Below, piece by piece: positions 3,621 through 18,817 of a stretch of DNA of 18,817 bases. The first letter of the stretch is position 1. The number at the start of each line of letters is the position of its first letter. A program made the position numbers and the translations under genes. The notes beneath the pieces were generated by a model. It had not been told where the DNA came from. It made no database searches and saw nothing but the letters and a program-made list of their open reading frames with translations. Source of the stretch: a virus (lineage: Duplodnaviria > Heunggongvirae > Uroviricota > Caudoviricetes); IMG/VR virus record IMGVR_UViG_2563366863_000004; one strand, given 5' to 3'.

Positions 3621-6174
3621 ACCGGTAGGCGATCTGGTCGTTGATTTAAGTCTGGATGCGGCCAGATTTGACGAGCAGATGGCCAGAGTCAGGCGTCATT
3701 TTTCCGGTACGGAAAGTGATGCGAAAAAAACAGCGGCAGTCGTTGAACAGTCAATGAACCGACAGGCGCTGGCTGCACAGAAAGCGGGGATTTCCGTCGG
3801 GCAGTATAAAGCCGCCATGCGTATGCTGCCTGCACAGTTCACCGACGTGGCCACGCAGCTTGCAGGCGGGCAAAGCCCGTGGCTGATCCTGCTGCAACAG
3901 GGCGGTCAGGTGAAGGACTCCTTCGGCGGGATGATCCCCATGTTCAGGGGGCTTGCCGGTGCGATCACCCTGCCGATGGTCGGGGCCACCTCGCTGGCGG
4001 TGGCGACCGGTGCGCTGGCGTATGCCTGGTATCAGGGTAACTCAACCCTGTCCGATTTCAACAAAACGCTGGTCCTTTCCGGTCATCAGTCGGGTCTGAC
4101 GGCAGATCGTATGCTGGTCCTGTCCAGAGCCGGGCAGGCGGCAGGGCTGACGTTTAACCAGACCAGCGAGTCACTCAGTGCACTGGTTAAGGCGGGGGTA
4201 AGCGGTGAGGCTCAGATTGTGTCCATCAGCCAGAGTGTGGCGCGTTTCTCCTCTGCATCCGGCGTGGAGGTGGACAAGGTCGCTGAAGCCTTCGGGAAGC
4301 TGACCACAGACCCGACGTCGGGGCTGACGGCGATGGCACGTCAGTTCCATAACGTGACGGCGGAGCAGATTGCGTATGTTGCTCAGTTGCAGCGTTCCGG
4401 CGATGAAACCGGGGCATTGCAGGCGGCGAACGAGGCCGCAACGAAAGGGTTTGATGACCAGACCCGCCGCCTGAAAGAGAACATGGGCACGCTGGAGACC
4501 TGGGCAGACAGGACAGCGCGGGCATTCAAATCCATGTGGGATGCGGTGCTGGATATTGGTCGTCCTGATACCGCGCAGGAGATGCTGATTAAGGCAGAGG
4601 CTGCGTTTAAGAAAGCAGACGACATCTGGAATCTGCGCAAGGATGATTATTTTGTTAACGATGAAGCGCGGGCGCGTTACTGGGATGATCGTGAAAAGGC
4701 CCGTCTTGCGCTTGAAGCCGCCCGAAAGAAGGCTGAGCAGCAGACTCAACAGGACAAAAATGCGCAGCAGCAGAGCGATACCGAAGCGTCACGGCTGAAA
4801 TATACCGAAGAGGCGCAGAAGGCTTACGAACGGCTGCAGACGCCGCTGGAGAAATATACCGCCCGTCAGGAAGAACTGAACAAGGCACTGAAAGACGGGA
4901 AAATCCTGCAGGCGGATTACAACACGCTGATGGCGGCGGCGAAAAAGGATTATGAAGCGACGCTGAAAAAGCCGAAACAGTCCGGCGTGAAGGTGTCTGC
5001 GGGCGATCGTCAGGAAGACAGTGCTCATGCTGCCCTGCTGACGCTTCAGGCAGAACTCCGGACGCTGGAGAAGCATGCCGGAGCGAATGAGAAAATCAGC
5101 CAGCAGCGCCGGGATTTGTGGAAGGCGGAGAGTCAGTTCGCGGTACTGGAGGAGGCGGCGCAACGTCGCCAGCTGTCTGCACAGGAGAAATCCCTGCTGG
5201 CGCATAAAGATGAGACGCTGGAGTACAAACGCCAGCTGGCTGCACTTGGCGACAAGGTTACGTATCAGGAGCGCCTGAACGCGCTGGCGCAGCAGGCGGA
5301 TAAATTCGCACAGCAGCAACGGGCAAAACGGGCCGCCATTGATGCGAAAAGCCGGGGGCTGACTGACCGGCAGGCAGAACGGGAAGCCACGGAACAGCGC
5401 CTGAAGGAACAGTATGGCGATAATCCACTGGCGCTGAATAACGTCATGTCAGAGCAGAAAAAGACCTGGGCGGCTGAAGACCTGCTTCGCGGGAACTGGA
5501 TGGCAGGCCTCAGGTCCGGCTGGAGTGAGTGGGAAGAGAGTGCCACGGACAGTATGTCGCAGGTAAAAAGTGCTGCCACGCAGACCTTTGATGGTATTGC
5601 ACAGAATATGGCGGCGATGCTGACCGGCAGTGAGCAGAACTGGCGCAGCTTCACCCGCTCCGTGCTGTCCATGATGACAGAAATTCTGCTTAAGCAGGCA
5701 ATGGTGGGGATTGTCGGGAGTATCGGCAGCGCTATTGGCGGGGCTGTTGGTGGTGGCGCATCCGCGTCAGGCGGTACAGCCATTCAGGCAGCTGCGGCGA
5801 AATTCCATTTTGCGACCGGAGGATTTACGGGAACCGGCGGCAAATATGAGCCAGCGGGGATTGTCCACCGCGGGGAGTTTGTCTTCACGAAGGAGGCAAC
5901 CAGCCGGATTGGTGTCGGGAACCTGTACCGCCTGATGCGGGGCTATGCGGAAGGGGGGTATGTGGGTGCTGCCGGAAGTCCGGCGCAGATGCGGCGGGCC
6001 GAAGGCATTAATTTTAATCAGAACAATCACGTGGTGATTCAGAACGACGGTATCAACGGACAGGCCGGGCCGCAGCTGATGAAAGCGGTGTATGAGATGG
6101 CCCGTAAAGGTGCGCAGGATGAGCTCCGGCTGCAGTTGCGTGATGGCGGTCTGTTATCGGGGAGCGGGCGATGA
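3613..6174 (+). CDS. H: Tail tape measure protein H
   Basis: 853 aa, the same length as lambda gpH. N-terminus MAEPVGDLVVDLSLDAARFDEQMARVRRHF, a long coiled-coil Ala/Gln/Lys-rich centre and a Gly-rich C-terminal region; overlaps the T stop. Confidence 0.95.
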   Translation: MAEPVGDLVVDLSLDAARFDEQMARVRRHFSGTESDAKKTAAVVEQSMNRQALAAQKAGISVGQYKAAMRMLPAQFTDVATQLAGGQSPWLILLQQGGQVKDSFGGMIPMFRGLAGAITLPMVGATSLAVATGALAYAWYQGNSTLSDFNKTLVLSGHQSGLTADRMLVLSRAGQAAGLTFNQTSESLSALVKAGVSGEAQIVSISQSVARFSSASGVEVDKVAEAFGKLTTDPTSGLTAMARQFHNVTAEQIAYVAQLQRSGDETGALQAANEAATKGFDDQTRRLKENMGTLETWADRTARAFKSMWDAVLDIGRPDTAQEMLIKAEAAFKKADDIWNLRKDDYFVNDEARARYWDDREKARLALEAARKKAEQQTQQDKNAQQQSDTEASRLKYTEEAQKAYERLQTPLEKYTARQEELNKALKDGKILQADYNTLMAAAKKDYEATLKKPKQSGVKVSAGDRQEDSAHAALLTLQAELRTLEKHAGANEKISQQRRDLWKAESQFAVLEEAAQRRQLSAQEKSLLAHKDETLEYKRQLAALGDKVTYQERLNALAQQADKFAQQQRAKRAAIDAKSRGLTDRQAEREATEQRLKEQYGDNPLALNNVMSEQKKTWAAEDLLRGNWMAGLRSGWSEWEESATDSMSQVKSAATQTFDGIAQNMAAMLTGSEQNWRSFTRSVLSMMTEILLKQAMVGIVGSIGSAIGGAVGGGASASGGTAIQAAAAKFHFATGGFTGTGGKYEPAGIVHRGEFVFTKEATSRIGVGNLYRLMRGYAEGGYVGAAGSPAQMRRAEGINFNQNNHVVIQNDGINGQAGPQLMKAVYEMARKGAQDELRLQLRDGGLLSGSGR

Positions 6175-6500
6175 AAACATTTCGCTGGAAAGTGAAGCCG
6201 GATATGGAGGTGAACTCGCAGCCATCGGTGCGTGAAGTGCGTTTTGGTGACGGGTACTCACAGCGTATGGCGGCAGGGCTGAATGCTGACCTGAAAACAT
6301 ACAGGGTGACGCTTTCCGTGACCCGGGAGGAGGCCCGGCATCTGGAAGCGTTCCTGGCAGAGCACGGTGGCTGGAAGGCATTTTTGTGGAAGCCACCCTA
6401 TGCATACCGGCAGATAAAGGTGACCTGTGCCGGGTGGTCTGCGCGGGTCGGGATGTTGCGCGTTGAGTTCAGCGCGGAGTTTAAGCAGGTGGTGAACTGA
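6171..6500 (+). CDS. M: Minor tail (tail tip) protein M
   Basis: 109 aa (MKTFRWKVKPDMEVNSQPSVREVRFGDGYSQR...), the lambda gpM length; ATGA overlap with the H stop. Confidence 0.9.
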   Translation: MKTFRWKVKPDMEVNSQPSVREVRFGDGYSQRMAAGLNADLKTYRVTLSVTREEARHLEAFLAEHGGWKAFLWKPPYAYRQIKVTCAGWSARVGMLRVEFSAEFKQVVN

Positions 6501-7198
6501 TGCAGGATATTCACGAAGAAAGTCTGAACGAGTCGGTTAAGTCAGAGCAGTCACCGCGGGTGGTACTCTGGGAAATCGACCTGACGGTGCAGGGCGGTGA
6601 GCGGTATTTTTTCTGCAATGAGCTGAATGAAAAAGGGGAGCCGGTGACCTGGCAGGGGCGTGAATATCAGGCGTACCCGATTGAGGGGAGTGGCTTTGAG
6701 ATGAGCGGGAAGGGCAGCAGTGCCAGACCGTCGCTGACGGTGTCCAATCTGTTCGGTCTGGTCACCGGGATGGCGGAAGACCTGCAGAGTCTGGTGGGGG
6801 CCACGGTGGTCCGCCGCCGGGTGTATGCCCGTTTTCTGGATGCGGTGAATTTCGTTGCGGGCAATCCGGAGGCCGACCCGGAGCAGGAGCTGACGGACCG
6901 GTGGGTGGTGGAGCAGATGTCAGCGCTGACAGCCATGACGGCCTCGTTTGTGCTGGCCACACCGACCGAGACGGACGGGGCGCTGTTTCCCGGTCGTATC
7001 ATGCTGGCGAACACCTGTATGTGGACCTACCGCTCTGATGAGTGTGGTTACACGGGCGGGGCTGTGGCGGATGAGTTCGATAAACCCACCACGGATATCC
7101 GTAAGGACAGATGCAGCAAGTGCATGCGCGGGTGTGAACTGCGCAGGAATGTCGGCAATTTTGGCGGTTTCCTTTCCATTAATAAACTTTCGCAGTAA
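6500..7198 (+). CDS. L: Minor tail (tail tip) protein L, with C-terminal Cys cluster
   Basis: 232 aa (MQDIHEESLNESVKSEQSPRVVLWEIDLT...), the lambda gpL length. C-terminal cysteines (CMWTYRSDECGYTGG...RCSKCMRGC) are consistent with the Fe-S-binding tip protein; TGATG overlap with M. Confidence 0.9.
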   Translation: MQDIHEESLNESVKSEQSPRVVLWEIDLTVQGGERYFFCNELNEKGEPVTWQGREYQAYPIEGSGFEMSGKGSSARPSLTVSNLFGLVTGMAEDLQSLVGATVVRRRVYARFLDAVNFVAGNPEADPEQELTDRWVVEQMSALTAMTASFVLATPTETDGALFPGRIMLANTCMWTYRSDECGYTGGAVADEFDKPTTDIRKDRCSKCMRGCELRRNVGNFGGFLSINKLSQ

Positions 7199-7208
7199 AT
7201 CCCGGTTT

Positions 7209-7952
7209 ATGACACAGACTGAATCAGCGATTCTGGCACATGCCCGGCGGTGTGCGCCTGCGGAGTCGTGCGGCTTCGTGATAAGCACGCCGGAGGGGGA
7301 GTGGTATATCCCTTGTGTGAATATTTCCGCGGAGCCGGAGGCGTATTTTCGTATCGCACCGGAAGACTGGCTGCGGGCAGAGATGCAGGGGGAGATTGTG
7401 GCACTGGTCCACAGTCATCCCGGTGGGCTGCCCTGGCTGAGCGAGGCTGACCGGCGGCTGCAGATAAAAAGCGCACTGCCCTGGTGGCTGGTCTGCCGGG
7501 GTGACATTCACAAATTCCGCTGTGTGCCACATCTGACGGGACGGCGCTTTGAGCACGGGGTGACGGACTGTTACACGCTGTTCCGGGATGCTTATCATCT
7601 GGCGGGGACTGAAATGCCGGATTTTCATCGCGAGGATGACTGGTGGCGCAACGGCCAGAACCTTTACCTGGACAATATGGCGGTCACCGGCTTTTACCGG
7701 GTGCCCCTGTCCTCTGCACAGGCGGGCGATATTCTGCTGTGCTGCTTTGGTGCTTCGGTACCGAACCATGCCGCCATTTACTGCGGTAACGGTGAGCTGC
7801 TTCACCATCTGCCTGAACAACTGAGTAAACGGGAGAGGTATTCCGAAAAATGGCAACGACGAACGCATTCTGTCTGGCGTCACCGCCACTGGCACGCATC
7901 TGCCTTCACGGGGATTTACAACGATTTGGCCGCCGCCTCAGCCTGTATGTGA
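7209..7952 (+). CDS. K: Tail tip assembly protein K (JAB/MPN + NlpC/P60 two-domain protein)
   Basis: Frame is open from ATG 7209 (MTQTESAILAHARRCAPAESCGF...). It carries a JAMM-type H-S-H-x7-S-x2-D motif (VALVHSHPGGLPWLSEAD) and an NlpC/P60-like Cys/His (GVTDCYTLF ... NHAAIY). No good SD precedes 7209. An in-frame ATG at 7383 would drop the N-terminal part of the JAB domain, so the long form is preferred. Confidence 0.75.
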   Translation: MTQTESAILAHARRCAPAESCGFVISTPEGEWYIPCVNISAEPEAYFRIAPEDWLRAEMQGEIVALVHSHPGGLPWLSEADRRLQIKSALPWWLVCRGDIHKFRCVPHLTGRRFEHGVTDCYTLFRDAYHLAGTEMPDFHREDDWWRNGQNLYLDNMAVTGFYRVPLSSAQAGDILLCCFGASVPNHAAIYCGNGELLHHLPEQLSKRERYSEKWQRRTHSVWRHRHWHASAFTGIYNDLAAASACM

Positions 7953-8530
7953 ACACGGCAGCGGAAGCCATTCGCGCCCTGTCGATGCAGATGCCGGGCT
8001 TTCGCCGTCAGATGAACGAAGGCTGGTACCAGATACGTATTGCCGGTGATGACACGGCACCGGAGGCGGTGTACGCCCGTCTTCACGAACAGCTGGGTGA
8101 GGGAACGGTCATCCACATTGTGCCGCGACTGGCCGGAGCCGGAAAGGGTGGACTGCAGATTGTGCTGGGGGCGGCAGCCATCGTGGGCTCTTTCTTCACT
8201 GCCGGGGCATCAATGGCGTTATGGGGTTCAGCCCTGGCAGCCGGTGGTTTTTCTGCCACCACGATGCTGTTTTCACTTGGAGCCAGCATGATTCTGGGCG
8301 GTGTGGCCCAGATGCTGGCCCCGAAGGCAAAAACACCGGATTACCGCGCAACGGATAACGGCAGACAGAACACGTACTTTTCCTCACTGGATAACATGAT
8401 TGCCCAGGGGAACCCGATGCCGGTGCCTTACGGGGAAATGCTGGTTGGCTCCCGCCGTATATCCCAGGACATCAGCACCCGTGATGAAGGCGGGGGCGGA
8501 AAGGTCGTGGTTATCGGGCGGCAGGGGTAA
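7850..8530 (+). CDS. I: Tail tip assembly protein I
   Basis: 226 aa ORF (MATTNAFCLASPPLARICLHGDLQRFGRR...) overlapping the 3' end of K by about 100 nt in another frame, as K/I do in lambda. Hydrophobic Gly/Ala-rich C-terminal half. Exact start uncertain. Confidence 0.75.
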   Translation: MATTNAFCLASPPLARICLHGDLQRFGRRLSLYVNTAAEAIRALSMQMPGFRRQMNEGWYQIRIAGDDTAPEAVYARLHEQLGEGTVIHIVPRLAGAGKGGLQIVLGAAAIVGSFFTAGASMALWGSALAAGGFSATTMLFSLGASMILGGVAQMLAPKAKTPDYRATDNGRQNTYFSSLDNMIAQGNPMPVPYGEMLVGSRRISQDISTRDEGGGGKVVVIGRQG

Positions 8531-8544
8531 AAAGAATAAAAAAA

Positions 8545-8576
8545 TCCCGCAGTGATCGCGGACAGGAACTGCGGGA
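8545..8576 (-). terminator. Hairpin with a T-tract on the minus strand (candidate intrinsic terminator for a leftward transcript)
   Basis: 8-bp stem tCCCGCAG (8545-8552) / CTGCGGGa (8569-8576) with a 16-nt loop. On the minus strand it is followed by ATTTTTTTATTCTTTTT (complement of 8531-8544). The loop is large, so confidence is low. Confidence 0.3.
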
Positions 8577-8740
8577 GAGTTACGAAGATTAAGTGTAAGG
8601 AATTATTCTTATATCACGACAAAAAAATTAACGCAGAGAAATTATACGCGCCACAGTCAGTGTGTGAAAATGTGAAGATATTCAGAATTTTTATGCCATT
8701 ACCGGTTTTAACCAACAGGATTATCGGTGGGCATGAAAGA

Positions 8741-8776
8741 AAACCCCGGTATCTGCTGATACCGGGGTTTCTCTTT
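8741..8776. terminator. Perfect 12-bp hairpin flanked by U-rich tracts on both strands (possible bidirectional terminator)
   Basis: AAACCCCGGTAT (8741-8752), loop ctgctg, ATACCGGGGTTT (8759-8770). + strand tail is ctcttt; minus-strand tail is ttttctttc. Confidence 0.35.
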
Positions 8777-8873
8777 AGCATGGCAGAAATGTGTTTCATG
8801 CTTTTCGGGCGAAGGATATCCGACTTCTGTACGGAATGGCAAGTGGCGGTTAATTTATTCAGGGGAAGGCTGT

Positions 8874-11800
8874 ATGGGAAAAGGTGGCGGTAAGGCACAC
8901 ACGCCTCGTGAGGCGAAGGATAATCTCAAATCCACGCAGATGATGAGTGTGATTGATGCGATTGGTGAGGGACCGATAGAAGGTCCGGTGAAGGGACTGC
9001 AGAGTATTCTGGTGAACAAAACCCCGCTGACGGACACGGACGGTAATCCCGTGATACACGGTGTGACCGCGGTCTGGCGTGCCGGGGAGCAGGAGCAGAC
9101 ACCACCGGAAGGCTTTGAGTCCTCCGGAGCTGAAACCGGACTGGGCGTGGAAGTGACGAAGGCAAAACCGGTGACGCGCACCATTACGTCCGCGAACATT
9201 GACCGCCTGCGGGTTACCTTCGGGGTGCAGTCACTGGTGGAGACCACCTCAAAGGGTGACCGTAACCCGGCAACCGTCCGCCTGCTGATTCAGTTACAGC
9301 GTAACGGTAACTGGGTGACAGAAAAGGACGTCACCATTAACGGCAAGACCACCTCACAGTTCCTGGCCTCGGTGATTCTGGATAATCTGCCTCCCCGGCC
9401 CTTTAACATCCGGATGGTCAGGGAGACGGCGGACAGCACCACGGACCAGCTGCAGAATAAGACGCTGTGGTCGTCATACACCGAAATCATCGATGTGAAA
9501 CAGTGCTACCCGAACACGGCCATTGTGGGGCTGCAGGTGGATGCGGAGCAGTTCGGCGGCCAGCAGATGACGGTGAACTACCATATCCGCGGTCGTATCA
9601 TCCAGGTGCCGTCAAACTATGACCCGGAAAAACGCACGTACAGTGGTATCTGGGACGGCAGTCTGAAACCGGCATACAGCAACAACCCGGCCTGGTGCCT
9701 GTGGGACATGCTGACTCACCCGCGCTACGGCATGGGAAAACGTCTGGGGGCGGCGGATGTGGACAAGTGGGCGCTGTATGCCATCGGGCAGTACTGCGAT
9801 CAGACGGTCCCGGATGGTTTCGGGGGGACCGAGCCGCGGATGACCTTTAATGCGTACCTGGCACAACAGCGTAAGGCGTGGGACGTTCTCAGTGATTTCT
9901 GCTCTGCGATGCGCTGTATGCCGGTATGGAACGGTCAGACGCTGACGTTCGTTCAGGACCGCCCGTCGGATGTGGTGTGGCCGTACACCAACAGCGATGT
10001 GGTGGTGGATGATAACGGCGTGGGATTCCGCTACAGCTTCAGTGCCCTGAAGGACCGGCACACGGCGGTGGAGGTGAATTACACCGACCCGCAGAACGGC
10101 TGGCAGACCTCCACGGAACTGGTGGAAGACCCGGAAGCCATACTGCGCTACGGGCGCAATCTGCTGAAGATGGACGCGTTCGGCTGTACCAGCCGCGGTC
10201 AGGCCCACCGTGCCGGACTGTGGGTGATAAAGACCGAACTGCTGGAAACGCAGACGGTGGACTTCACGCTCGGGTCTCAGGGGCTGCGGCACACACCCGG
10301 TGACATTATTGAAATCTGTGATAATGACTATGCCGGGACCCTGACCGGCGGACGTGTCCTGTCCATTGATGCTGCCACCCGCACCCTGACGCTGGACCGT
10401 GAGGTTACCCTGCCGGAGACAGGTACATCGGCGGTGAACCTGATTAACGGCAGCGGTAAGCCGGTGAGTGTGGACATCACCGCACACCCCGCGCCGGACC
10501 GGATACAGGTCAGTACCCTGCCTGATGGTGTGGAGACATACGGGGTGTGGGGACTCTCCCTGCCGTCACTGCGCCGTCGCCTGTTCCGCTGTGTCTCCGT
10601 CCGGGAAAACACGGACGGCACCTTTGCCATCACGGCGGTGCAGCACGTACCGGAAAAAGAAGCCATCGTGGATAACGGTGCCCGCTTTGAGCCGCAGTCA
10701 GGTTCCCTGAACAGCGTCATCCCACCGGCAGTGCAGCACCTGACGGTGGAGGTGAGCGCAGCTGACGGCCAGTATCTGGCGCAGGCGAAATGGGACACGC
10801 CGCGGGTGGTGAAGGGTGTGCGCTTCAGTCTGCGTCTGACCAGCGGAAGCGGAGAAGACAGCCGTCTGGTGAGCACCGCCAGCACCGCAGACACGGAGCA
10901 CCGTTTCAGCGGCCTGCCACTGGGGGAATACACCCTGACGGTCAGGGCGATTAACAGTTATGGCCAGCAGGGCGAACCGGCCACCACCACGTTCAGGATT
11001 AACGCACCTGCAAAACCCGCCACCATTGAGCTGACGCCGGGGTATTTTCAGATAACGGCGGTCCCGCGTCTTGCGGTGTATGACCCGACGGTACAGTTTG
11101 AATTCTGGTTCTCAGAAAAACGCATCACGAACACAGCACAGGTGGAAAAATCTGCCCGTTATCTGGGGACCGGCAGTCAGTGGACTGTCCATGGGAGCCG
11201 GATTAAGCCGGGGACGGATTTCTGGTTTTACGTGCGAAGCGTCAACCTGGTGGGAAAATCTGCTTTTGTGGAAGCCAGCGGGCAGCCCAGCAATGATGGT
11301 GAAGGGTATCTGGAAATTTTCCGGGGGCTGATAGATGAGACGCTTCTGGGCCAGGCACTGAAAGAGCGCATTGATGCTTCAGCGCTGCGTACGGAGGTCA
11401 CGCAACTGGAAGAAGACATCCGTCAGCGGATGGACACGGATATCGCAGAAGTGACCCGGAAAATCGGGAAGGCGGAAAACAGCCTCACGCAGCTGGTTGC
11501 GAAAAAGAATGAGGACCAGACACTGGCCATCGCGCAGGTGAGCCAGAAAGTGGACCGGGTGAGCAGTGAAATCTCACAGACTGTCAGCCAGGGGCAGTCA
11601 GAAAACGCCCGACAGATAGCACAGGTCCGCCAGTACGTGGATAAAAAAGGGAGTGAAATTACCTCGACCACGGATAAAAAGCTGGGTGACCAGGCCGTGA
11701 CCATACAGCAAATCCAGCGGGTTCAGTCAGACACGCGCAATGAGCTGAATGCCATGTATATGCTGAAGGTGCAGAAAACAAAAAACGGTATTCCCTATGT

Positions 11801-12566
11801 GGCCGGGATTGGCGCGGGGATTGAGGATGTTGATGGTCAGACGCTGAGCAGTATTCTGCTGCAGGCGGACCGTATCGCGATGATTACCCCGGAGAACGGC
11901 AACACCACGCCGCTGTTTGTGGCGCAGGGGAATCAGCTGTTCATGAACGACGTGTTCCTGAAGCGACTGTTTGCGGTGAGCATCACGTCATCCGGCAATC
12001 CTCCTACGTTTTCCCTGACGCCGGATGGCAGGCTGACAGCCCGCAATGCGGATATCAGTGGAGCCATCACGGCGAATACCGGCACGCTCAATAATGTCAC
12101 CATTAACGAGAACTGTGTCATCAGAGGGAAACTGTCTGCAAACCAGATTGAAGGCGATCTCGTTAAAACAGTGGGTAAGGTTTTCCCCCGTGACTCCCGT
12201 GCACCGGAGCGTTGGCCATCAGGAACCATTACCGTCAGGGTTTATGACGATCAGCCGTTTAACCGGCAGATTGTTATTCCGGCGGTGGCTTTCAGCGGTG
12301 CCAGACATGAGCGGGAGAACAGCGATACTTATTCGTCATGCCGCCTGATAGTACGGAAAAACGGTGCTGAAATTTATAACCGTACCGCGCTGGATAATAC
12401 GCTGATTTACAGTGGTGTTATTGATATGCCTGCTGGTCGCGGCCACATGACGCTGGAGTTTTCTGTATCAGCATGGTGGGTAAATGGCTGGTATCCCACA
12501 GCAAGTATCAGCGATTTGCTGGTTGTTGTGATGAAGAAAGCCACTGCAGGCATCACGATTAGCTGA
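8874..12566 (+). CDS. J: Central tail fibre / host specificity protein J
   Basis: 1230-aa ORF with an AGGGGAAGG SD. N-terminus [39 protein letters not shown] matches lambda gpJ closely. Fibronectin-III-like middle, coiled-coil segment, C-terminal receptor-binding region. Confidence 0.95.
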
Positions 12567-12584
12567 ATTTTATAACCCCAATAC

Positions 12585-12610
12585 GGGCGCCAGAAATGGC
12601 GCCTTTTTTA
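12585..12610 (+). terminator. Intrinsic terminator downstream of J
   Basis: Palindromic GGCGCC-agaaat-GGCGCC stem-loop (12586-12603) followed by TTTTTT (12604-12609). Confidence 0.55.
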
Positions 12611-12633
12611 TTGCAGAAAAGCGAGAGGTAATT

Positions 12634-13233
12634 ATGCGTAAAGTTTGTGCAGCCATTTTGTCCGCAGCCATCTGTCTGTCCGTATCCGGTGCGCCTGCAT
12701 GGGCGTCTGAACATCAGTCCACACTGAGCGCGGGGTATCTTCATGCCCGTACGAACGCTCCCGGCAGCGATAATCTGAACGGGATTAACGTGAAATACCG
12801 TTATGAGTTTACGGACGCGCTGGGGCTGATTACGTCCTTCAGTTATGCCAATGCTGAGGATGAGCAAAAAACGCACTACAGCGATACCCGCTGGCATGAA
12901 GATTCCGAGCGTAACCGCTGGTTCAGCGTGATGGCAGGGCCGTCTGTACGCGTGAATGAATGGTTCAGCGCGTATGCGATGGCGGGTGTGGCTTACAGCC
13001 GTGTGTCGACTTTCTCCGGGGATTATCTCCGCGTAACTGACAACAAGGGGAAAACGCACGATGTGCTGACCGGAAGTGATGACGGTCGCCACAGCAACAC
13101 GTCTCTGGCGTGGGGGGCTGGCGTGCAGTTTAACCCGACCGAATCCGTAACCATTGACCTTGCTTATGAAGGTTCCGGTAGTGGCGACTGGCGAACGGAT
13201 GCATTTATTGTTGGTATCGGATACCGTTTCTGA
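12634..13233 (+). CDS. lom: Outer membrane beta-barrel protein Lom (Ail/Lom/PagC family), a lysogenic-conversion moron
   Basis: 199 aa with an N-terminal signal peptide (MRKVCAAILSAAICLSVSGAPAWA), GINVKYRYE and a C-terminal ...YEGSGSGDWRTDAFIVGIGYRF typical of lambda Lom; GAGAGG SD; terminators on both sides. Confidence 0.9.
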   Translation: MRKVCAAILSAAICLSVSGAPAWASEHQSTLSAGYLHARTNAPGSDNLNGINVKYRYEFTDALGLITSFSYANAEDEQKTHYSDTRWHEDSERNRWFSVMAGPSVRVNEWFSAYAMAGVAYSRVSTFSGDYLRVTDNKGKTHDVLTGSDDGRHSNTSLAWGAGVQFNPTESVTIDLAYEGSGSGDWRTDAFIVGIGYRF

Positions 13234-13337
13234 CAACAGACGCCGATTTATCTTCTGTAAATATTGTTATGATACGCAGGTTCATCCACCTTATGGGGTG
13301 AACTGCGTTTGAGGAAACGTAAAGTTACACTGTCCTG

Positions 13338-13370
13338 AAGCCCGTGGCGTCACTGCTGCGGGCTTTTTTT
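13338..13370 (+). terminator. Hairpin plus T7 tract downstream of lom
   Basis: AAGCCCG (13338-13344) ... CGGGCTT (13359-13365) followed by TTTTTTT up to 13370. Confidence 0.45.
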
Positions 13371-13729
13371 ATTGGTGGAAAAGTATGACAGTAAAAATTT
13401 CTGGCGTGCTTAAAGATGGCACAGGAAAACCAGTACAGAACTGCACCATTGTGCTGAAGGCCAGACGAACCAGCAGCACGGTGGTGGTGAACACGGTGGC
13501 CTCTGAAAATCCGGATGAAGCCGGACGTTACAGCATGGATGTTGAGCATGGTCAGTACAGCGTCACCCTGCTGGTTGAAGGTTTTCCGCCTTCACATGCC
13601 GGGACCATTACCGTCTATGAAGGTTCCAGACCAGGTACGCTGAATGATTTTCTCGGTGCCATGACGGAGGATGATGTCCGACCGGAGGCACTGCGCCGCT
13701 TTGAGCAGATGGTGGAAGAGGTGTCACGT

Positions 13730-14760
13730 AACGCCTCCGCGGTTGCACAGAATACGGCAGCCGCGAAAAAATCAGCCAGCGATGCCAGTGCATCAGCCAG
13801 CGAGGCGGCAACTCATGCAACCGATGCTGCAGCCTCAGCACGTGCCGCCAGCACGTCAGCCGGACAGGCCGCGTCGTCGGCTCAGTCAGCGTCTTCCAGC
13901 GCAGGAACGGCATCGACAAAGGCCCGTGAAGCAGCAAAAAGTGCTGCTGCTGCAGAGTCATCAAAAAGCGCGGCAGCTACCAGCGCCAGTGCCGCGAAAA
14001 CGTCAGAAACGAATGCCGCAGCATCACAAAAATCGGCAGCCACTTCTGCATCCACAGCGACCACGAAGGCGTCAGAAGCTGCCACCTCGGCACGGGGTGC
14101 GGCGGCCTCAAAAGAGGCAGCGAAATCTTCAGAAACGAATGCATCATCAAGTGCCAGTAGTGCAGCTTCCTCGGCAACGGCGGCAGGAAATTCCGCGAAG
14201 GCGGCAAAAACGTCCGAGACGAACGCTAAGTCTTCTGAAACAGCAGCGGGACAGAGCGCCTCAGCTGCGGCAGGTTCAAAAACAGCGGCTGCATTATCTG
14301 CCAGTGCCGCGTCAACAAGTGCCGGGCAGGCCTCAGCCAGTGCCACCGCCGCCGGAAAATCGGCAGAAAGCGCCGCATCATCCGCTTCAACAGCCACAAC
14401 GAAAGCTGGCAAAGCCACTGAGCAAGCCACTGCAGCAGCGAGGTCTGCTTCTGCAGCAAAAACCTCTGAAACAAATGCAAAGACTTCAGCAGACAATGCT
14501 GCTTCCTCTAAGGCGGCAGCCGCATCGTCAGCCAGTTCAGCGGCGTCATCGGCATCATCTGCGTCTGCTTCAAAAGATGAGGCGACCAGACAAGCGTCAG
14601 CAGCGAAAGGTAGTGCCACGACAGCAACAACGAAAGCATCAGAGGCGGCAGGCAGTGCGACGGCTGCATCTCAGAGCAAAGTTGCTGCTGAATCCGCGGC
14701 AACGCGCGCCGAGACAGCAGCAAAACGGGCAGAGGATATTGCATCCGCCGTGGCGCTGGA
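13730..14760 (+). repeat. Degenerate tandem Ala/Ser/Thr-rich repeats inside stf (approximate bounds)
   Basis: Recurring ...SAAKTSETNA... / ...KSSETNASSSASSAASSA... units, with recurring nucleotide cores such as aaaacgtcagaaacgaatgc, aaatcttcagaaacgaatgc, aaaacgtccgagacgaacgc and aaaacctctgaaacaaatgc. They create long spurious ORFs in the other frames. Confidence 0.5.
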
Positions 14761-14932
14761 GGATGCGAGCACGACGAAAAAGGGGATAGTACAGCTCAGC
14801 AGTGCAACAAACAGCACCAGTGAAAAGCTGGCGGCAACGCCAAAGGCAGTTAAAACTGTTAAAGATAGTTCAGTTCAAAAAACTGGCGACACAATGGGAG
14901 GGCAGTTAAAAATCAGCACGATAAATGCTCTT

Positions 14933-14940
14933 CGAATATT
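14933..14940. repeat. Target-site duplication (left copy) flanking IS1: cgaatatt
   Basis: The 8 bp immediately before the IS1 end (14933-14940) are identical to the 8 bp immediately after it (15709-15716). Confidence 0.75.
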
Positions 14941-14955
14941 GGTAATGACTCCAAC

Positions 14956-15459
14956 TTACTGATAGTGTTTTATGTTCAGATAATGCCCGATGACTTTGTC
15001 ATGCAGCTCCACCGATTTTGAGAACGACAGTGACTTCCGTCCCAGCCTTGCCAGATGTTGTCTCAGATTCAGGTTATGTCGCTCAATGCGCTGAGTGTAA
15101 CGCTTGCTGATTACGTGCAGCTTTCCCTTCAGGCGGGATTCATACAGCGGCCAGCCATCCGTCATCCATACCACGACCTCAAAGGCCGACAGCAGGCTCA
15201 GAAGACGCTCCAGTGTGGCCAGAGTGCGTTCACCGAAGACGTGCGCCACAACCGTCCTCCGTATCCTGTCATACGCGTAAAACAGCCAGCGCTGGCGCGA
15301 TTTAGCCCCGACATAGCCCCACTGTTCGCCCATTTCCGCGCAGACGATGACGTCACTGCCCGGCTGTATGCGCGAGGTTACCGACTGCGGCCTGAGTTTT
15401 TTAAGTGACGTAAAATCGTGTTGAGGCCAACGCCCATAATGCGGGCGGTTGCCCGGCAT
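14956..15459 (-). CDS. insB: IS1 InsB (transposase catalytic part; expressed as InsAB' by -1 frameshift)
   Basis: 167-aa [40 protein letters not shown]... The TTAAAAAACTC frameshift motif is on the minus strand (complement of 15394-15404), just upstream of the insA stop. Confidence 0.88.
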
Positions 15460-15653
15460 CCAACACCATTCATGGCCATATCAATGATTTTCTGGTGTGT
15501 ACCGGGTTGAGAAGCGGTGTAAGTGAACTGCAGTTGCCATGTTTTACGGCAGTGAGAGCAGAGATAGCGCTGATGTCCGGCAGTACTTTTACCGTTACGC
15601 ACCACGCCTTCAGTAGCTGAGCAGGAGGGACAACTGATGGAGATGGAAGCCAC
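15378..15653 (-). CDS. insA: IS1 InsA (DNA-binding regulator / N-terminal part of transposase)
   Basis: 91 aa, [91 protein letters not shown], essentially canonical IS1 InsA with its Zn-finger cysteines. Confidence 0.92.
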
Positions 15654-15708
15654 GGGAGCACCTCAAAAACACCATCATACACTAAATCAGTAAGTTGGCA
15701 CCATTACC

Positions 15709-15716
15709 CGAATATT
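15709..15716. repeat. Target-site duplication (right copy) flanking IS1: cgaatatt
   Basis: Identical to 14933-14940. Confidence 0.75.
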
Positions 15717-17187
15717 CAACCAAGCCTTTGGCCTTATTTTTAGGCGTTCCGAAGATCATCTTCATCTTATTCCGACTAATGAAGGGGAGGGGGAAAATGG
15801 AGACATCGGTTCATTAAGACCATTCTCTATAAACTTAAGATCAGGGTTGGTGTCCATCGGTAATGGACTAAAAGTTGGTGGTAGTGTTACTGGTAATTTG
15901 ACCGGAAACGCAGATACTGCGACCAAGATCAAGACAGCACGTAAGATTGGGGGCGTGGCATTTGATGGATCGGCAGATATCAACTTGCCTGGAGTCAACG
16001 CTACCGGTAATCAAAACACTACAGGTAATGCTGCGACCGCCACGAAACTTCAGGCAGCCAGAACGATTAACGGTGTGTCATTTGATGGTAGTGCAAATAT
16101 CACATTGACCCCTTCAAATATTGGGGCATTGGCATTAACTGGAGGGACTCTTTCAGGTGGTTTAACTGCTGCTGGTGAGGTTATTTCAAGGTCAGCAAAT
16201 GGTCTGCGTATTGCCTATGGCAACTATGGATTCTTTATCCGAAATGATGGATCAAACACATATTTTATGTTGACAGATTCGGGTAACAGTCTTGGTACGC
16301 ACAATAGCTTAAGGCCGTTTATAATTAGTAACCATACTGGCAATGTTACAATTGCAACTAAATTAAACGCGAGTGGTGGTATCACTGGATCTTTATCGGG
16401 TAATGCAAGCACAGCAACCAAATTGCAAACTGCAAGGACAATTAACGGCGTAAAATTTGACGGCTCGGCAAATATTGAAGCGTTTCCGCCAGGTGTTCCG
16501 CTGCCGTGGCCATCAGATACACCACCTGCAGGTTATGCGATCATGCAGGGGCAGACGTTTGATAAGGCAGCATATCCGAAACTGGCTATTGCCTATCCTT
16601 CAGGTGTTATTCCAGATATGCGCGGCTGGACAATCAAGGGCAAACCCGCCAGTGGCCGGGCCGTATTGTCTCAGGAACAGGACGGCATAAAATCGCACAC
16701 CCACAGCGCCAGCGCATCCAGTACGGATTTGGGGACGAAAACCACATCGTCGTTTGATTACGGCACTAAATCCACGAATAACACCGGGGCGCATACGCAC
16801 AGTCTGAGTGGCTCTACGGGGTCTGCCGGTGTTCATACTCATGGTAATGGTATTCGTTGGCCAGGAGGCGGCGGTTCTGCGTTAGCATTTTATGATGGCG
16901 GTGGGTTCACTTATGTCCAGAATTCACAGTATCAAGTAAGCCCGGAGACTTCTTCCTATAGATCGTATTATCAACGTATTCAGACACAGTCAGCAGGTGC
17001 TCATACCCACTCGCTGTCTGGAACTGCAGCAAGTTCTGGCGCACATGCACATACTGTAGGTATTGGTGCGCATACGCACTCCGTTGCGATTGGTTCACAT
17101 GGACACACCATCACCGTTAACGCTGCGGGTAACGCGGAAAACACCGTCAAAAACATCGCATTTAACTATATTGTGAGGCTTGCATAA
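15717..17187 (+). pseudogene. stf: Side tail fibre protein Stf, 3' portion (distal, receptor-binding part with His-rich repeats)
   Basis: Frame is open from the IS1 junction to TAA at 17185-17187 and is in phase with the 5' part once IS1 plus one 8-bp repeat copy are removed. Product ...[35 protein letters not shown]... ends with repeated HxH motifs ([35 protein letters not shown]). Confidence 0.8.
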
Positions 17188-17771
17188 TGGCATTCAGAAT
17201 GAGTGAACAAGCACGGACCATAAAAATTTATAATCTGCTGGCCGGAACTAATGAATTTATTGGTGAAGGTGACGCATATATTCCGCCTCATACAGGTCTG
17301 CCAGCAAACAGTACCGATATTGCACCACCAGATATTCCTGCTGGCTTTGTGGCTGTTTTCAACAGTGATGAGGCATCGTGGCATCTCGTTGAAGACCATC
17401 GGGGGAAAACGGTTTATGACGTAGCGTCAGGGGACGAGTTATTTATTTCTGAACTCGGTCCGTTACCGGAAAATGTTACCTGGTTATCGCCGGAAGGGGA
17501 GTTTCAGAAGTGGAACGGCACAGCCTGGGTGAAGGATACGGAAGCAGAAAAACTGTTCCGGATCCGGGAGGCGGAAGAAACAAAAAACAACCTGATGCAG
17601 GTAGCCAGTGAGCATATTGCGCCGCTTCAGGATGCTGCAGATCTGGAAATTGCAACGGAGGAAGAAACCTCATTGCTGGAAGCCTGGAAAAAGTATCGGG
17701 TGTTGCTGAACCGTGTTGATACATCAACTGCACCTGATATTGAGTGGCCTACGAACCCTGTCAGGGAGTAA
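17187..17771 (+). CDS. tfa: Tail fibre assembly protein Tfa
   Basis: 194 aa, [54 protein letters not shown]..., matching lambda Tfa as I recall it; start overlaps the stf stop by 1 nt (ATAATG). Confidence 0.9.
17607..17771. repeat. Direct repeat copy 1: tfa 3' end
   Basis: Encodes [55 protein letters not shown] diverged copy (mostly synonymous or conservative changes) lies at 18656-18817. Confidence 0.7.
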
Positions 17772-17785
17772 TCATTGGGATTATG

Positions 17786-17818
17786 CCGCAGCACGTCTTA
17801 AGCAAGAACGTGCTGCGG
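17786..17818 (+). terminator. 11-bp hairpin downstream of tfa (weak terminator candidate)
   Basis: CCGCAGCACGT (17786-17796) / ACGTGCTGCGG (17808-17818) with an 11-nt loop. The T-tract (tatttttt, 17828-17835) is displaced about 9 nt from the stem, so this is weak. Confidence 0.3.
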
Positions 17819-17825
17819 TTGGATG

Positions 17826-18494
17826 CTATTTTTTCCCTGAAGCGGAAAACATTACTACAGTACCTTGAACCTTGGTTTTAACATTCTCGAAATGCTCTGA
17901 GAGTATATGTGTTAAGCCTTCTTCGGAATCTTTTGTGTTTGAAAAGATGCCTTTCTGATTGTAAATGCGCATCAGTTTTTGACCGAAGCTATTGTGCACA
18001 ACTCCATCGCCAAGAATTGTGGCTCCGTATAGAGTTCCATCGTCAGTTAAGGCCTGCGCCGCATTGCGTATTACACAGCTTTTTGTAGATATATTTCCAG
18101 GCAGGCAGTGAAGAAGGTAAAACATGGAAATGGAATCAAATTGACCATGTAACGCCGCGGGATAAGGTTCAAAAACATCATGGCTAATTTTATGTTTAAT
18201 TTTTGATTCCCCAGCCCTTGTAGATGCCGCGTTCAGGCTAGCTTCGTTCAAATCCATTAAAGATATCAGACTACTCTCAGGTACGTGAGTAAGGTAAAAC
18301 CCAGTTCCAACACCAATATCCAGATGGTTGTTACCTACATGTTCCAGAAAGTGTGGAAGAAGGTGTTCCTTTGTAGGACATCCCCATGCAAGCCGATTTG
18401 ATACTCCCAAAACCCACCAGTCATAAAGCTTTAGGGTAAGTGGTGTGTAAATTTTAGCCCCATCATCTGTGTTTTTTTTCATTGATTTCACCAT
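17826..18494 (-). CDS. Class I SAM-dependent methyltransferase (moron, unknown substrate)
   Basis: 222-aa ORF on the opposite strand from the tail genes. Motif-I-like LDIGVGTGFY fits a Rossmann-fold AdoMet methyltransferase. Region is visibly AT-richer than the tail genes. An alternative start at 18482 (MKKNTDD...) has a better GGTGA SD. The arrangement resembles the tfaD-ybcY-tfaX layout I recall from E. coli K-12 DLP12; this is from memory and unverified. Confidence 0.75.
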   Translation of the reverse strand: MVKSMKKNTDDGAKIYTPLTLKLYDWWVLGVSNRLAWGCPTKEHLLPHFLEHVGNNHLDIGVGTGFYLTHVPESSLISLMDLNEASLNAASTRAGESKIKHKISHDVFEPYPAALHGQFDSISMFYLLHCLPGNISTKSCVIRNAAQALTDDGTLYGATILGDGVVHNSFGQKLMRIYNQKGIFSNTKDSEEGLTHILSEHFENVKTKVQGTVVMFSASGKK

Positions 18495-18550
18495 GTTATA
18501 GTTTTATTTGTGAATTAAATCAATTATGGCGATGAATTACAAGGGGTTAA

Positions 18551-18817
18551 ATGCTGCCGCAGCATAGCGATATTGAAATAGCCTGGTATGCTTCGATACA
18601 GCAGGAGCCGAATGACTGGAAGACCGTCACCACACAGTTCCACATCCAGGAATTCAGTGAGTATATTGCGCCACTGCAGGATGCTGTAGATCTGGAAATC
18701 GCAACGGCGGAAGAAAGATCGTTGCTGGAGGCATGGAATAAATATCGGGTATTGTTGAATCGTGTTGATACATCAACTGCACCTGATATTGAGTGGCCGA
18801 CTTCACCTGCAGAGTAA
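18551..18817 (+). CDS. Short Tfa-like protein or tfa gene fragment (Tfa C-terminal domain with an unrelated 35-aa N-terminus)
   Basis: 88-aa ORF with a strong AAGGGG SD. Its C-terminal 53 aa ([53 protein letters not shown]) are near-identical to the Tfa C-terminus; the N-terminal [35 protein letters not shown] has no counterpart in Tfa. Stop is at the window end. Confidence 0.6.
18656..18817. repeat. Direct repeat copy 2: tfa 3' end
   Basis: See copy 1 at 17607-17771; the two copies bracket the minus-strand methyltransferase gene. Confidence 0.7.

Follow-up and report, generated by a model that had tools for sequence, protein, structure and literature searches.

Our main finding is that an IS1 element of an IS1X2-like isoform has, very probably, transposed by simple insertion into stf, the gene for the side tail fibre, in a lambda-like prophage of E. 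coli, with loss of the side fibres and polarity on the downstream gene as expected consequences. The anatomy of the element, the target-site duplication that flanks it, the exact colinearity of the two gene parts with an empty site and the recency of the event are all shown, either in the window (the whole stretch of 18,817 nucleotides analysed here) or by comparing it with other genomes. The positions of the relevant features are collected in Table 1.

Table 1. Features of the interrupted stf gene, of its neighbours and of the inserted IS1 (positions in the window)
Feature	Position	Strand	Evidence or remark
J, 1230 aa	8874-12566		upstream of lom and stf
lom	12634-13233		between J and stf
5' part of stf, 518 codons + 2 nt	13385-14940	+	Pfam PF08400, 235.5 bits; 100% identical to stf of strain C7
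Truncated ORF made by the insertion	13385-14962	+	518 Stf residues + 7 IS1-encoded residues (LVMTPTY), then stop; list of open reading frames
stf mosaic junction	14854-14855		widely shared N-terminal part ends, AT-richer allele-specific module starts
Left copy of 8-bp target-site duplication, CGAATATT	14933-14940		repeat search; single-copy in the empty site
Complete IS1, IS1X2-like isoform	14941-15708	-	768 bp; transposase genes antisense to stf
IS1 terminal inverted repeat, insB-distal end (IRR)	14941-14963		repeat search, paired with IRL
insB reading frame, catalytic part of InsAB'	14956-15459	-	Pfam PF03400 DDE_Tnp_IS1, 1-131/131, 245.6 bits
Codon GGC, Gly109 of InsAB'	15328-15330	-	GAC (Asp) in other IS1 copies; conserved DE.W motif
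insA, 91 aa, zinc ribbon + helix-turn-helix	15378-15653	-	Pfam PF03811 (Zn_ribbon_InsA / HTH_Tnp_IS1 pair with PF12759)
A6C programmed -1 frameshift motif joining insA to insB'	15396-15402	-	fusion translated, open
IS1 terminal inverted repeat, insA-proximal end (IRL)	15686-15708		overlaps the lone promoter-like site, which is directed into insA
Right copy of 8-bp target-site duplication, CGAATATT	15709-15716		repeat search
3' part of stf, distal shaft + receptor-binding end	15717-17187	+	Pfam Gp34_trimer, Collar, Phage_fiber; 100% identical to C7
tfa, tail fibre assembly chaperone	17187-17771	+	Pfam Caudo_TAP, 151.5 bits; start overlaps the stf stop (TAATG)
Occupied-junction k-mers of stf::IS1			AATGCTCTTCGAATATTGGTAATGACTCC and CACCATTACCCGAATATTCAACCAAGCC

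The interrupted gene and its neighbours

The genes J, lom, stf and tfa follow one another in the lambda arrangement, and the side tail fibre gene itself is of the lambda type: the prophage tail fibre N-terminal domain (PF08400, spanning Stf residues 1-134) is encoded after J and lom, the distal part carries T4 gp34/gp37-like, collar and GxHxH-repeat domains, and a coupled tfa follows. The other tail ORFs of the window are all open and have their expected sizes. Upstream of the IS1, the 5' part of stf holds the phage_tail_N domain, an Ala/Ser-rich shaft and the first 86 nt of a variable distal module. The 3' part is now cut off from the start codon and from the N-terminal attachment domain, and the sole start that it has of its own is an internal TTG. 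The last ~680 nt of the gene are 88-95% identical to the side tail fibre genes of many isolated lambdoid phages, and the C terminus of the protein is one that we take to be lambda-like; in the phage collection, no isolated phage was found to carry the whole allele, none of them covering its middle module. As for the 525-aa protein that the truncated ORF encodes, a collection of 15 billion proteins contained no exact record of it.

Several other features of the region deserve mention in their own right. Between positions 13700 and 14850, stf encodes a long, internally repetitive shaft rich in Ala, Ser and Thr (KTSETNA-type motifs), with 58% GC and an excess of A over T that reaches a skew of 0.47. 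An ORF of 113 aa (8552-8893) without NCBIfam match lies in the interval from the tail assembly gene I to J, whose start it overlaps; in E. coli 042 an ORF of the same length is annotated at this position, as a hypothetical protein, and other gene calls place no gene there. Finally, a gene for a class I SAM-dependent methyltransferase (17826-18494, minus strand) is located between tfa and a 3' tfa remnant, and the two tfa ends (17606-17749 and 18655-18798) form direct repeats of 88.9% identity. This gene has the appearance of cargo acquired at the end of the prophage, next to which related genomes carry potB.

A complete IS1 of an IS1X2-like isoform

The ends of the element are canonical (GGTAATG...CATTACC), and its inverted repeats, GGTAATGACTCCAACTTACTGAT and ATCAGTAAGTTGGCACCATTACC, are 23 nt long and match at 20 of 23 positions (87% complementary). 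InsA gave matches far over the cut-offs to the Pfam families Zn_ribbon_InsA and HTH_Tnp_IS1 (PF03811, PF12759), and the exact InsA protein was found on 994 contigs. When translation shifts by -1 at the A6C motif, an uninterrupted InsAB' of 232 aa is obtained, which scores 242.8 bits against the IS1 transposase model of NCBIfam (NF033558, cut-off 100). The element therefore has what defines the IS1 family, that is, a length of ~768 bp, repeats of ~23 bp starting with GGT(A/G)ATG, ORFs joined through A6C, InsA and DDE domains, and a duplication of 8-9 bp; every component that the earlier note had listed for a complete 768-bp IS1 (23-bp repeats, insA, insB and A6C) was recovered at 14941-15708. 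A promoter scan of positions 14800-16000 retrieved a lone promoter-like site, on the minus strand (GTGCCA-16-TATGAT, 15701 to 15674), which is the element's own insA promoter; in this interval, no promoter directed out of IS1 towards the 3' part of stf was found.

The copy is 99.1% nucleotide-identical to a PLSDB plasmid copy annotated as tnpA_IS1X2, an annotation from which we took the isoform name (IS1X2 being an ISfinder name), and its nearest relative in complete E. coli genomes is 98.8% identical. No exact twin was present among the IS1 copies found in complete E. coli genomes or in the 5,000 best-scoring PLSDB plasmid records, where identity peaked at 98.8-99.1%. Like IS1X2, it has 768 bp, 23-nt repeats starting with GGTAATG, an insA/insB' pair with the A6C -1 frameshift, and a target duplication in the 8-9-bp range within AT-rich DNA. 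It departs from the nearest copies by 7-9 nucleotides, of which six to eight are states also seen in other IS1 isoforms; one difference alone alters the protein, replacing Asp109 of InsAB' by Gly in the DE.W motif.

The target-site duplication

The two copies of CGAATATT abut both IS1 ends at a spacing of 776, and they are exactly 8 bp long, as the neighbouring bases differ on either side. The chance that two abutting 8-mers match is ~1.5e-5. In IS-free alleles the 8-mer is single: when the window was compared with the stf gene of strain C7, two BLAST segments overlapped by exactly 8 nt on the subject. Since the 8-mer is single-copy in the empty site, its repetition here is a genuine target-site duplication rather than something native to stf. 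The identical flanking 8-mers described in the earlier note are thus confirmed, and the finding that it had named as fatal to its reading, namely that they belong to a longer native repeat of IS-free stf alleles, is excluded. A 9-bp duplication was also considered and rejected, no register yielding one.

How common such a length is was surveyed at other IS1 copies. Among 57 copies of 92-95% identity in species-representative genomes, 11 were flanked by a duplication of 9 bp, 2 by one of 8 bp and 44 by none, while for 11 IS1X2-type copies of 98.8-99.1% identity (loci L128-L138) the corresponding numbers were 4, 4 and 3. Pooling both surveys gives 15 copies with 9 bp and 6 with 8 bp. A recent paper on IS1 likewise gives the length of its target duplications as 8 or 9 bp (PMC12428005). 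An 8-bp duplication is therefore normal for the IS1X2-like isoform (4 of 8 scorable copies), and the earlier remark that it was slightly unusual does not hold. It can also be seen that IS1A-type copies mostly have 9 bp (11 versus 2) and IS1X2-type copies 9 and 8 bp equally (4 and 4), numbers that are too small to establish a difference between isoforms.

The empty site and the age of the insertion

Joining 13385-14940 to 15717-17187 produced a reading frame of 3027 nt with a single terminal stop, which encodes 1008 aa. The reconstructed gene is identical, with 0 nucleotide differences over the 3027 nt, to the intact stf of E. coli strain C7 (WP_000216487.1, 1008 aa); the junction is colinear with this homologue, without gap or frameshift, as had been anticipated. 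Two of the previous statements need amendment. The reading frame is indeed uninterrupted, but the protein has 1008 aa and not about 1009, the stop codon having been counted. Also, the gene is indeed restored in frame, but the description of the insertion as in-frame-restorable singles out nothing special, for by definition the same holds for any IS that is removed together with one copy of its duplication.

The empty site is common. A 600-nt query spanning it was found with at least 99% identity in 340 records of complete E. coli genomes, and was covered over at least 80% of its length in 423 genomes. The intact 1008-aa stf is present, next to potB, at four closely related loci (L123-L126) and in 21 similar places; in the closest relatives (these four loci and strain C7), potB lies just past the point that corresponds to the end of the window. 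The J protein of the window is itself found, exact, in hundreds of assemblies. When positions 1-777 and 4342-18817 were compared with one of these loci (L123), 0 differences were observed except for the IS1 and one repeat copy, so that 13.7 kb of prophage around the insertion are without substitution relative to a prophage with intact stf. This absence of substitutions indicates that the insertion is very recent. Together with the unchanged gene and the common empty site, it bears out the proposal of a recent, single-step insertion into an otherwise intact stf.

The occupied stf::IS1 junction was absent from 5,426 complete E. coli genomes, from the GTDB species representatives and from the JGI metagenome contigs. 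Its absence from short-read drafts says little, because IS copies break contigs.

A comparable situation is known from the Rac prophage of K-12, where IS5 interrupts lomR beside stfR: there too, an IS splits a gene of the J-lom-stf-tfa region in a lambdoid prophage. Strain 9FA likewise has its Ail/Lom gene in two pieces around an IS5-like element, directly upstream of stfR. Rac, however, is old and heavily deleted, whereas the tail module of the present prophage is intact and identical to that of prophages with an uninterrupted stf, which marks the event as recent.

An AT-rich target close to a mosaic junction

The side tail fibre gene is a mosaic. Partial matches from other stf alleles stop at position 213-215 of the 600-nt query, and the alignment of K-12 stfR with this stf stops at nt 1470 of the gene, corresponding to window position ~14854. 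The IS1 is inserted at nt 1556/1557 of the gene, 86 bp downstream of this junction. GC content drops from 58% in 13700-14852 to 36% in 14853-14940, and IS1 is reported to prefer AT-rich target DNA (PMC8767348). Most simply, IS1 inserted into the AT-rich stretch with which the variable distal module of stf opens, in keeping with this preference. The earlier suggestion that the insertion point is where the sequence turns AT-richer, and might coincide with a mosaic junction, was right as to the AT-richer sequence and to a boundary nearby, but the two points differ by 86 bp; an insertion exactly on the junction is consequently rejected. Near the same boundary, an exact 11-nt direct repeat, GGCAGTTAAAA, occurs at 14845-14855 and 14901-14911, the first copy ending where the homology between alleles stops (~14854). 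The recombination that formed the mosaic junction may have taken place at this repeat.

A glycine at a conserved position of the transposase

The one amino acid change of this IS1 affects a residue that is conserved in the other copies compared. On the plus strand, the base that distinguishes the two codons is C here and T in 61 of 61 gap-free full-length copies and in 11 of 11 nearest IS1X2-type copies, and Asp is present at the DE.W motif in all 72 other IS1 copies compared. More broadly, an alignment of InsAB' homologues shows that the Asp of DE.W, the Asp of TD(G/D)W and the Glu of IER are conserved down to ~40% identity. Judged by this conservation and by the general DDE pattern, the DE.W Asp would be the first Asp of the DDE triad. 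The triad is then not intact in the present copy, where Gly replaces the first Asp but the other two residues, the Asp of TDGW and the Glu of IER, are kept. The copy probably encodes an inactive transposase and may be non-autonomous, though it is still an IS1 by sequence.

With Gly at the conserved first Asp, this IS1 may not have moved by its own enzyme. The variant is not private to the stf copy: an identical InsB protein was found on one other contig (L139, an ENA metagenome contig), in an unrelated context and within an IS of 98.3% nucleotide identity. The presence of the same InsB in a second context implies that the Gly109 variant has probably already moved, most likely helped in trans; the second contig suggests either such mobilisation in trans or some residual activity.

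Alternative explanations

One could suppose that the structure was created by the assembly, through an IS1 copy misplaced or collapsed into stf, or through a contig chimera of two prophages. Indeed, the segment 778-4341, which runs from about Z to within the 5' end of H (the tape measure gene), shares only 74-87% identity with the prophage that matches the rest of the window at 100%, but 99.8% with a second lambdoid prophage of the same strains (for example, C7 2264956-2269056); either co-resident prophages have exchanged a module here or the assembly is chimeric. The lack of an exact match among the IS1 copies found in complete E. coli genomes and in the best 5,000 PLSDB records points the same way, and the six to eight differences that this IS1 shares with other isoforms are what a consensus of several copies would give. 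However, misplacement of a repeat would not explain why a single-copy sequence is exactly duplicated over 8 bp at canonical IS ends, and the swapped module is more than 10 kb away from the insertion, so that we hold an artefact to be highly improbable. Even less credit can be given to the idea that the two halves of stf were not originally adjacent, the IS1 marking a rearrangement (a deletion, an inversion or a recombination between two IS1 copies) or an old decaying pseudogene. The many IS1 copies without duplications in IS-rich genomes (44 of 57 and 3 of 11 in our two surveys) do indicate that IS1-mediated rearrangements are common, but here the duplication is perfect and the flanks follow the intact gene exactly, without a single difference, gap or frameshift; this exact colinearity with C7, and the surrounding 13.7 kb of prophage DNA free of substitutions, already refute both variants, which are almost certainly wrong.

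A different question is whether the insertion, once made, was favoured. Switching off Stf and Tfa, or producing the 525-aa N-terminal stub, might benefit the lysogen or the phage, perhaps in a manner reversible by rare precise excision. Nothing direct speaks for this; the insertion is clean, stf would be restored if the element were excised between the 8-bp repeats, and the substitution at the conserved Asp could stabilise the IS1 copy. Yet the allele is in no other genome among the complete E. coli, GTDB and JGI sets, which gives no sign of spread or recurrence; moreover, IS1 inserts readily in AT-rich DNA, making chance sufficient, and since lambda can do without stf, the loss of this gene should be tolerated. 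Selection is hence a poor candidate, with scarcely any probability in our estimation. A more elaborate version, which we regard as very unlikely, combines two propositions: that an IS1 lineage with Gly109, which has lost the first catalytic Asp and moves only in trans, has locked the fibre gene off, the fibre-less state or the N-terminal stub being favoured in the lysogen; and, separately, that IS1X2, unlike IS1A-type copies, makes 8- and 9-bp duplications at approximately equal rates. Were the latter true, isoforms of IS1 would differ in the distance between the two cuts that they make in the target strands.

Expected consequences for the prophage

By far the best account of these observations is thus the simple insertion of an IS1X2-like element into stf. 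An 8-bp staggered cut, in a 36%-GC stretch located 86 bp inside the variable distal module, would have generated the CGAATATT duplication upon transposition. Stf is predicted to end after residue 518, followed by 7 IS-encoded residues, and its receptor-binding C-terminal half would have lost its translation start. IS1 is known as a polar element, and tfa, whose translation is coupled to that of stf and which follows the insertion, should for these reasons see its expression fall; such a reduction is very probable. If the prophage is inducible (the window comprises the late region only), its particles would be without side fibres and would rely on the J tip protein alone. It is reasonable to infer that the phage has lost its side fibres. 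In lambda, the Stf fibres bind the outer-membrane receptor OmpC and speed up adsorption.

The laboratory strain lambda PaPa offers a parallel. According to Hendrix and Duda (1992), laboratory lambda reportedly is devoid of side tail fibres owing to a frameshift in stf. In both cases a single lesion kills the stf gene of a lambdoid phage, J, lom and tfa are intact, the order is J-lom-stf-tfa, and fibre-less viable particles are expected. The lesion of lambda PaPa is, however, a 1-bp frameshift, whereas here it is a 768-bp IS, so that polarity on tfa is also to be expected; the allele differs as well, being 1008 aa long with a long Ala/Ser-rich shaft. Both stf and tfa are non-essential in lambda and dispensable for plaque formation, and the laboratory strain carries a stf frameshift (PMC10695390). 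On account of this dispensability, a fibre-less but viable phage is expected here, provided that the rest of the prophage works. We infer that the event represents neutral decay rather than a selected change.

The element IS1 is well known, as are this allele of stf and the knockout of late prophage genes by IS elements; the case described here is nothing new in kind. For annotation, it means that both stf fragments should be recorded together with the IS as one interrupted gene, stf::IS1, and that the loss of side fibres by this prophage should be scored as a single recent event and not as the outcome of a long decay. The stf::IS1 allele offers a clean, datable case in which IS1 has targeted an AT-rich patch of a mosaic fibre gene.
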